This document shows positions 8,228 through 19,492 of a stretch of DNA of 64,000 nucleotides, piece after piece; position 1 is the stretch's first letter, and each line of letters starts with the position of its first letter. The notes below the pieces were generated by a model, which was not told the DNA's origin, did not search any database, and saw only the letters and a program-made list of their open reading frames with translations. The position numbers and the translations under genes were made by a program. The stretch is taken from NCBI RefSeq assembly GCF_045037415.1, contig NZ_CP173438.1. One strand, 5' to 3'. This DNA is from Escherichia coli (GTDB lineage Bacteria > Pseudomonadota > Gammaproteobacteria > Enterobacterales > Enterobacteriaceae).

Positions 8228-10057
8228 ATGTGTGGAATTGTTGGCGCGATCGCGCAACGTGATGTAGCAGAAATCCTTCTTGAAGGTTTACGTCGTCTGG
8301 AATATCGCGGATATGACTCTGCCGGCCTGGCCGTGGTGGATGCTGAAGGTCATATGACCCGCCTGCGTCGCCTCGGTAAAGTACAGATGCTGGCTCAGGC
8401 AGCGGAAGAACATCCTCTGCATGGCGGCACCGGTATTGCTCACACTCGCTGGGCGACCCACGGTGAACCTTCAGAAGCTAACGCGCATCCGCATGTTTCT
8501 GAACACATTGTGGTGGTGCATAACGGCATCATCGAAAACCATGAACCGCTGCGTGAAGAGTTAAAAGCGCGTGGCTATACCTTCGTTTCTGAAACCGACA
8601 CCGAAGTGATTGCACATTTGGTGAACTGGGAGCTGAAACAAGGCGGTACTCTGCGTGAGGCAGTTCTGCGTGCTATCCCGCAACTGCGTGGTGCGTACGG
8701 TACAGTGATCATGGACTCCCGTCATCCGGATACCCTGCTGGCGGCACGTTCTGGTAGTCCGCTGGTGATTGGCCTGGGTATGGGCGAAAACTTTATCGCT
8801 TCTGACCAGCTGGCGCTGTTGCCAGTGACTCGTCGTTTTATCTTCCTTGAAGAGGGCGATATTGCGGAAATCACTCGCCGTTCGGTAAACATCTTCGATA
8901 AAACTGGCGCGGAAGTAAAACGTCAGGATATCGAATCCAATCTGCAATATGACGCGGGCGATAAAGGTATTTACCGCCACTACATGCAGAAAGAGATCTA
9001 CGAACAGCCGAACGCGATCAAAAACACCCTTACCGGGCGCATCAGCCACGGTCAGGTTGATTTAAGCGAGCTGGGACCGAACGCCGATGAACTGCTGTCG
9101 AAGGTTGAGCATATTCAGATCCTCGCCTGTGGTACTTCTTATAACTCCGGTATGGTTTCCCGCTACTGGTTTGAATCGCTGGCAGGTATTCCGTGCGACG
9201 TCGAAATCGCCTCTGAATTCCGCTATCGCAAATCTGCCGTGCGTCGTAACAGCCTGATGATCACCTTGTCACAGTCTGGCGAAACCGCGGATACCCTGGC
9301 GGGCCTGCGTCTTTCGAAAGAGCTGGGTTACCTTGGTTCGCTGGCAATCTGTAACGTTCCGGGTTCTTCTCTGGTGCGCGAATCCGATCTGGCGCTGATG
9401 ACCAACGCCGGTACGGAAATTGGCGTGGCCTCCACCAAAGCATTCACCACCCAGTTAACTGTGCTGTTGATGCTGGTGGCGAAACTGTCTCGCCTGAAAG
9501 GTCTGGATGCCTCCATTGAACATGACATCGTGCATGGTCTGCAGGCGCTGCCGAGCCGTATTGAGCAGATGCTGTCTCAGGACAAACGCATTGAAGCGCT
9601 GGCAGAAGATTTCTCTGACAAACATCACGCGCTGTTCCTGGGCCGTGGCGATCAGTACCCAATCGCGCTGGAAGGTGCATTGAAGCTGAAAGAGATCTCT
9701 TACATTCACGCTGAAGCCTACGCTGCAGGCGAACTGAAACACGGTCCGCTGGCGCTGATTGATGCCGATATGCCGGTTATCGTCGTTGCACCGAACAACG
9801 AATTGCTGGAAAAACTGAAATCCAACATTGAAGAAGTTCGCGCGCGTGGCGGTCAGTTGTATGTCTTCGCCGATCAGGATGCGGGTTTTGTGAGCAGTGA
9901 CAACATGCACATCATTGAGATGCCGCATGTGGAAGAGGTGATTGCACCGATCTTCTACACCGTTCCGCTGCAACTACTGGCTTACCACGTTGCGCTGATC
10001 AAAGGCACCGACGTTGACCAGCCGCGTAACCTGGCGAAATCGGTTACGGTTGAGTAA
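8228..10057 (+). CDS. glmS: Glutamine--fructose-6-phosphate aminotransferase (609 aa)
   Basis: 609-aa ORF beginning MCGIVGA (N-terminal Cys nucleophile), SIS domains, C-terminal …AKSVTVE. Confidence 0.97.
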
Positions 10058-10092
10058 TAAATGGATGCCCTGCGTAAGCAGGGCATTTTTCT
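10020..10092 (+). other. attTn7 target region (glmS 3' end and downstream terminator), unoccupied
   Basis: Established location of the Tn7 attachment site at the glmS 3' end; the ~313-bp glmS-pstS spacer here has no inserted DNA. Confidence 0.6.
10064..10092 (+). terminator. glmS Rho-independent terminator
   Basis: Hairpin atgccctgc-gtaa-gcagggcat followed by ttttt. Confidence 0.7.
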
Positions 10093-10264
10093 TCCTGTTA
10101 TGTTTTTAATCAAATATCCTGCCAACTCCATGTGACAAACCGTCATCTTCGGCTACTTTTTCTCTGACACAGAATGAAAATTTTTCTGTCATCTCTTCGT
10201 TATTAATATTTGTAATTAACTGAATATCAACGCTTATTTAAATCAGACTAAAGACTTTCTCTCT

Positions 10265-10304
10265 CTGTCATAAAACTGTCATAAACCTTACATATAACTG
10301 TCAC
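10265..10304 (+). promoter_or_regulatory. PhoB-binding Pho boxes of the pstS promoter
   Basis: Tandem ctgtcataaaactgtcat and cttacatataactgtcac ~70-105 bp upstream of the pstS ATG. Confidence 0.8.
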
Positions 10305-10352
10305 CTGTTTGTCCTATTTTGCTTCTCGTAGCCAACAAACAATGCTTTATGA

Positions 10353-11411
<1,059 letters not shown>

Positions 11412-15145: not shown

Positions 15146-16086
<941 letters not shown>

Positions 16087-16087
16087 A

Positions 16088-19492
<3,405 letters not shown>

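Follow-up and report, generated by a model that had tools for sequence, protein, structure and literature searches.

The empty Tn7 attachment site downstream of glmS in an Escherichia coli chromosome and its naturally occupied counterparts

Tn7 is directed to its chromosomal target by a pathway that is established knowledge, running from TnsD through TnsC to TnsAB, and the vacant attTn7 after glmS, which is already known, is the commonest state of a textbook feature and the one found in most E. coli. The minimal TnsD site has been defined as the 36 bp that close the glmS open reading frame, +23 to +58 (Mitra et al. 2010, PMC2918618), in which +31, +33, +42, +43, +45, +51 and +54 are strong binding positions and +30, +37, +48 and +52 modest ones. 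The same work reports that wobble positions vary among functional attTn7 sites and that the sequence of the insertion point is dispensable for attTn7 function (PMC2918618). A second kind of element is also known from this intergenic region, as lpf2 (O-island 154) is located between glmS and pstS (PMC6033998), and both the lpf2/OI-154 and lpf-O113 loci occupy the same intergenic position as the spacer described here.

We examined this site in a 64-kb stretch of DNA, referred to throughout as the window, which is an E. coli chromosome segment that runs from atpB to emrD with the gene order atpB, glmU-glmS, pstSCAB-phoU, bgl, tna, rnpA-rpmH, dnaA-dnaN-recF-gyrB and emrD. The window aligned end to end with strain AR_0089 (NZ_CP032265.1, 2014304-2078303) at 99.989% identity, the differences being six substitutions and one 1-bp difference in a T-run. 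Around the locus, positions 9750-10680 were 100% identical in many complete E. coli genomes, including an O25b:H4 strain, and matched 780 records in the E. coli genome collection at 99% identity or higher; O25b:H4 is the ST131 serotype. Our analysis indicates that window positions 10022-10082 are almost certainly the intact, unoccupied chromosomal attTn7 of E. coli.

A few features elsewhere in the window were also recorded. The bgl operon antiterminator gene bglG (15236-16072) contains an in-frame TAA stop at codon 231 and is annotated as a pseudogene in AR_0089. The sole indel between the window and AR_0089 lies in the bglG-bglF spacer, in a T-run at 16164-16172 that is T9 in the window versus T10 in AR_0089, and could be either genuine variation or an artefact of homopolymer sequencing. 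At the yidJ position, a sulfatase (~59927-61421; L004 27928-29422) is annotated as two overlapping CDSs in a near-identical genome, which suggests that the gene is frameshifted.

Position of attTn7 and comparison with K-12

The genes on either side of the site, and the two parts of the site itself, were placed as follows:

8228-10057, plus strand: glmS coding sequence, glutamine--fructose-6-phosphate transaminase, 609 aa (open reading frame; the same coordinates are annotated as glmS, WP_000334086.1, in AR_0089)
10371-11411, plus strand: pstS coding sequence, 346 aa (open reading frame; annotation in AR_0089)
10022-10057, plus strand: TnsD-binding determinant of attTn7, +58 to +23, CCGCGTAACCTGGCGAAATCGGTTACGGTTGAGTAA (definition of PMC2918618; mapped from occupied genomes)
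10078-10082, no strand: Tn7 insertion point, the 5 bp GCAGG duplicated on insertion (glmS::Tn7 junctions of CEA601S, FDAARGOS_536 and GN02350)

These attTn7 coordinates were derived from real glmS::Tn7 junctions and cross-checked against the bases reported in PMC2918618. The pentamer duplicated in FDAARGOS_536 corresponds to window 10078-10082, and position 0 of attTn7 is therefore 10080. With this numbering the bases reported as +31 C, +42 T, +43 T and +51 T agree with the bottom strand opposite window positions 10049, 10038, 10037 and 10029, respectively. A reading of the locus made beforehand from its sequence alone (the sequence-only reading) had proposed that the recognition determinant lies in the 3' coding end of glmS and that Tn7 attaches in the glmS terminator region, and both placements hold: the TnsD site falls wholly within glmS, where it forms the final 36 bp of the gene, includes the stop codon and encodes 11 residues, and the insertion point falls inside the terminator hairpin. 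The interval 10020-10092 contains the TnsD-binding sequence, the position of the target duplication and the terminator hairpin with its T-run.

The attTn7 of K-12 shares with the window the same gene, position, 313-bp spacer, terminator hairpin and insertion coordinate, and its TnsD site is identical at 35 of 36 bp. All 11 positions important for TnsD binding (seven strong and four modest) are the same in both. Within the 36 bp the sole difference from a K-12-like genome (L006) is at 10036 (+44), where the window has G and K-12 has A; this is the wobble position of an Ala codon and the change is silent. The second lineage difference is at position 0 (10080), where the window has A, giving GCAGG, and K-12 has G, giving GCGGG. 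In the rest of the spacer there are seven further substitutions. The whole spacer aligns with that of the K-12-like genome with no gaps and 9 substitutions. More widely, the middle base of the Tn7 target duplication (10080) varies between genomes, being A in the window and CEA601S and G in K-12 and others.

At this locus TnsD would bind the final 36 bp of glmS (10022-10057) and recruit TnsC, which would in turn activate the TnsAB transposase. TnsAB would then insert Tn7 ~23 bp downstream of glmS, with duplication of 10078-10082 and with the right end of Tn7 oriented towards glmS. Such an insertion would spare the glmS reading frame and split only the terminator hairpin. From the sequence of the site we infer that TnsD binding and Tn7 insertion would take place in this particular strain.

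The glmS-pstS spacer and its replacement by lpf islands

The spacer had been estimated at ~313 bp in the sequence-only reading and is exactly that length. It was resolved into the following parts:

10058-10370, no strand: whole glmS-pstS spacer, 313 bp, uninterrupted (equal length in a K-12-like genome and in Tn7-excised CEA601S)
10063-10088, with a T-run to about 10093, plus strand: glmS intrinsic terminator, a GGATGCCCTGC-GTAA-GCAGGGCAT stem-loop followed by the T-run (terminator scan, RNA fold)
10093-10264, no strand: AT-rich segment, 32% GC, ~170 bp (composition and heptamer scan)
10265-10304, plus strand: PhoB-dependent promoter of pstS, two Pho boxes 22 bp apart (consensus search, direct repeat)

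The predicted terminator has a 9-11 bp stem, a GTAA loop and a TTTTT tail, as would be expected of an intrinsic terminator. Its fold had an energy of -19.3 kcal/mol (z = -5.58), and none of 200 shuffled sequences was as stable. Position 10080 lies in the 3' arm of the stem and pairs with either allele, as U-A when the base is A (-19.3 kcal/mol) or as U.G when it is G (-18.6 kcal/mol). For the promoter, we searched the 64 kb with the Pho-box consensus, a tandem 18-bp CTGTCATA(A/T)A(A/T)CTGTCA(C/T) that replaces the -35 element, and obtained three overlapping matches where 0.18 would be expected by chance; all three lie within 10265-10304. The boxes at 10265-10282 and 10287-10304 carry 0 and 2 mismatches, respectively. 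No sigma-70 -35/-10 consensus was found in the spacer, as is expected for a PhoB-dependent promoter.

The short spacer is only one of the arrangements found at this position in E. coli. It is uninterrupted in 3004 of 5424 matching complete genomes (~55%), and in ~2400 of the 5424 (~44%) an lpf operon stands in its place, of the lpfA2 type in O157:H7 and of the lpf-O113 type in O26:H11. Comparison with two such loci (L002 2058-9000 and L010 3584-9003) showed that homology to the window ends at 10058/10059, 1-2 bp past the glmS stop, and resumes at 10261/10266, at the first Pho box. The lpf islands take the place of window 10060-10265, including the terminator and the Tn7 insertion-point sequence, and are not inserted at the Tn7 point; they supply a terminator of their own behind glmS. 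Since the TnsD site is inside glmS, it is kept in the lpf-carrying genomes. The window itself has no lpfA-lpfD/E chaperone-usher operon in its spacer, which at 313 bp has no ORF >28 aa inside it. The sequence-only reading had called the site empty, and this is correct in that no Tn7 is inserted; the lpf fimbrial island is likewise absent, a point which that reading had not raised.

With so many genomes (~2400 of 5424) having the stretch from the glmS stop to the first Pho box replaced by lpf operons, the short spacer might not be ancestral, and 10060-10265 might instead be a replacement allele that followed the loss or replacement of an lpf island. We consider this unlikely: the 206-bp segment 10060-10265 showed no similarity to either lpf island (best E = 0.037 over 33 bp), no flanking repeats or integrase accompany it, and these data do not favour either direction of change. 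A history of lpf loss would in any case be compatible with the reading of the locus as an intact, unoccupied attTn7, since every haplotype has its TnsD determinant within glmS.

The sequence-only reading had also held that the spacer contains only the terminator and the Pho-box promoter. Both are present, but "contains only" is slightly too strong, since the spacer also includes the ~170 bp of AT-rich DNA at 10093-10264, although there is nothing mobile there. This segment contains no ORF >28 aa wholly inside it and no significant repeats, and an Rfam scan of 9800-10600 at E <= 1 identified no family, its two matches (RsmY and Tombus_3_III) being chance-level with scores well short of the gathering thresholds. 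At 10167 the T of K-12 and CEA601S makes a further CTGTCAC heptamer, whereas the window has A and this heptamer is absent. It could be proposed that the AT-rich DNA, which is confined to the short-spacer haplotype, is an undescribed regulatory element (upstream PhoB/IHF sites or a small transcript) that alters pstS control between haplotypes. The sole pointer in this direction is that the window has CTGTCAT at 10186, a Pho-box-like heptamer additional to the two Pho boxes and located ~80 bp before them, and we regard a regulatory role of this kind as decidedly improbable.

Naturally occupied counterparts of the site

To place the window against occupied genomes we used as a query a 211-bp Tn7 right end. 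Matches came from 113 E. coli genomes, with identities of 99% or higher in nearly all of them, and the query overlaps an annotated TnsA gene. A 400-bp junction query built in silico, in which window 9883-10082 was joined to Tn7R, was covered over at least 80% of its length (the cut-off applied) in 100 genomes, none of them matching it perfectly, and Tn7 is present at glmS in 100 of 5426 complete E. coli genomes (1.8%). In FDAARGOS_536 a Tn7 of 14,067 bp lies between glmS and pstS, with tnsA adjoining glmS, and carries tnsABCDE and a dfrA1-sat2-aadA1 class 2 integron. In both FDAARGOS_536 and GN02350, Tn7 is flanked on both sides by GCGGG.

The closest counterpart was found with a 121-bp junction query, which strain CEA601S matched at 100%. 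CEA601S carries a 14,067-bp Tn7 (tnsABCDE and a class 2 integron) with GCAGG at both junctions, and its flank does not differ from the window anywhere in the 61 bp between +58 and -2. When Tn7 and one GCAGG were excised from CEA601S in silico, a 313-bp spacer was left that has a single difference from the window, at 10167. As CEA601S without its Tn7 equals the window but for one base, the window is the empty counterpart of a naturally occupied site, and in the comparison with occupied genomes that the sequence-only reading had suggested, it corresponds to an occupied locus less Tn7 and one of the two target copies. CEA601S, FDAARGOS_536 and GN02350 have the same flanks as the window, but with the 14,067-bp Tn7 and a second 5-bp target copy, and the window is without both. 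At the level of sequence, the CEA601S junctions confirm that the lineage-specific attTn7 allele is a competent Tn7 target in nature.

It might still be argued that attTn7 is present but non-functional in this lineage owing to the substitutions at 10036 (+44) and 10080 (position 0), as neither position is among those mutated in PMC2918618, and none of the 100 genomes occupied by Tn7 matches the window perfectly over the 200-bp glmS flank (closest 99.3%). Against this stand the Tn7 of CEA601S, which sits with a perfect GCAGG duplication in an allele that shares every base with the window from +58 to -2, the fact that +44 is a codon wobble position, of a class reported as variable among functional attTn7 sites, the reported dispensability of the insertion-point sequence, and the occurrence of Tn7 also downstream of +35 A glmS alleles (FDAARGOS_536, GN02350 and MS8345). 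A non-functional site is in our judgement highly improbable. The neutrality of the +44 G and position-0 A rests on one natural insertion, that of CEA601S, together with what PMC2918618 reports on wobble positions and the insertion-point sequence. As judged from the 200-bp flanks, no genome in the collection that belongs to this exact lineage has Tn7 at the site, which probably reflects lineage history rather than a block to insertion.

Two further propositions were considered and set aside. Complete avoidance of the +44 G allele by Tn7 is ruled out by CEA601S, in which both junctions were confirmed. GN02350 shows just three differences from the window in 400 bp, clustered beside Tn7; acquisition of its Tn7 by recombination with a 45-bp donor flank was excluded, as there are 72 differences from the window over 13 kb, and because these are spread over the 13 kb the flank allele of GN02350 is native.

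Tn7-like elements with cargo occur occasionally at this spacer, and one was found in strain 873.10 (NZ_CP061754.1; L011 14171-23400 and L001 1-20001), in which a ~29-kb Tn7-like element that is absent from the window occupies the same glmS-linked site. It has its own tnsABCDE, with the tnsA end adjoining glmS as with Tn7. Its ends, TGTGGGATGCAAATAAAG, are unlike those of Tn7, and the pentamer it duplicates, AGCGG, maps to window 10077-10081, a 1-bp offset from that of Tn7. The cargo of this element is a locus of heat resistance (clpK, hsp20-GI, yfdX1/2, hdeD-GI and trx-GI).

Absence of Tn7 from the window and use of the locus

The sequence-only reading had anticipated that a search for Tn7 ends would be negative, and neither ends nor tns genes were detected above chance in the window. 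The Tn7 terminal 13-mer had no match with up to 2 mismatches anywhere in the 64-kb window; at 3 mismatches there were 10 matches in the window against 19.7 expected, none of them in the glmS-pstS spacer. Likewise, the window gave only chance-level matches (best E = 0.19) when searched with the whole 14-kb Tn7 by blastn and with TnsA-E by tblastn, and the annotation of AR_0089 across the matching stretch is free of transposase, integrase and tns genes. The target pentamer is single-copy and the spacer is of wild-type length, as in an unoccupied attTn7. The alternative that the spacer is not truly empty but retains degenerate Tn7-like ends or pieces of tns genes, an idea favoured by the elements that sit exactly here in other E. 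coli (Tn7 in 100 genomes and the Tn7-like element of 873.10), is vanishingly improbable. The spacer has the 313-bp length of K-12 with no indels, matches the CEA601S locus once Tn7 and one duplication copy are subtracted from it, shows neither a Tn7 end motif nor above-chance similarity to Tn7 or the Tns proteins, and has no repeats beyond the Pho boxes and one 10-bp palindrome.

What is added here to the known biology of attTn7 is limited to exact coordinates and to the natural use of the lineage-specific allele by Tn7. The literature on mini-Tn7 yielded no direct citation for ST131, and the work retrieved used attTn7 in K-12-type strains only. The literature and the Tn7 carried naturally by the identical allele of CEA601S lead us to infer that the locus is a safe harbour. 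The coordinates of attTn7 in this lineage are now fixed, with the TnsD site at 10022-10057 and insertion at 10078-10082, which is of modest practical value, and as Tn7 has inserted naturally in an identical allele, mini-Tn7 tools should work at this locus in this lineage.
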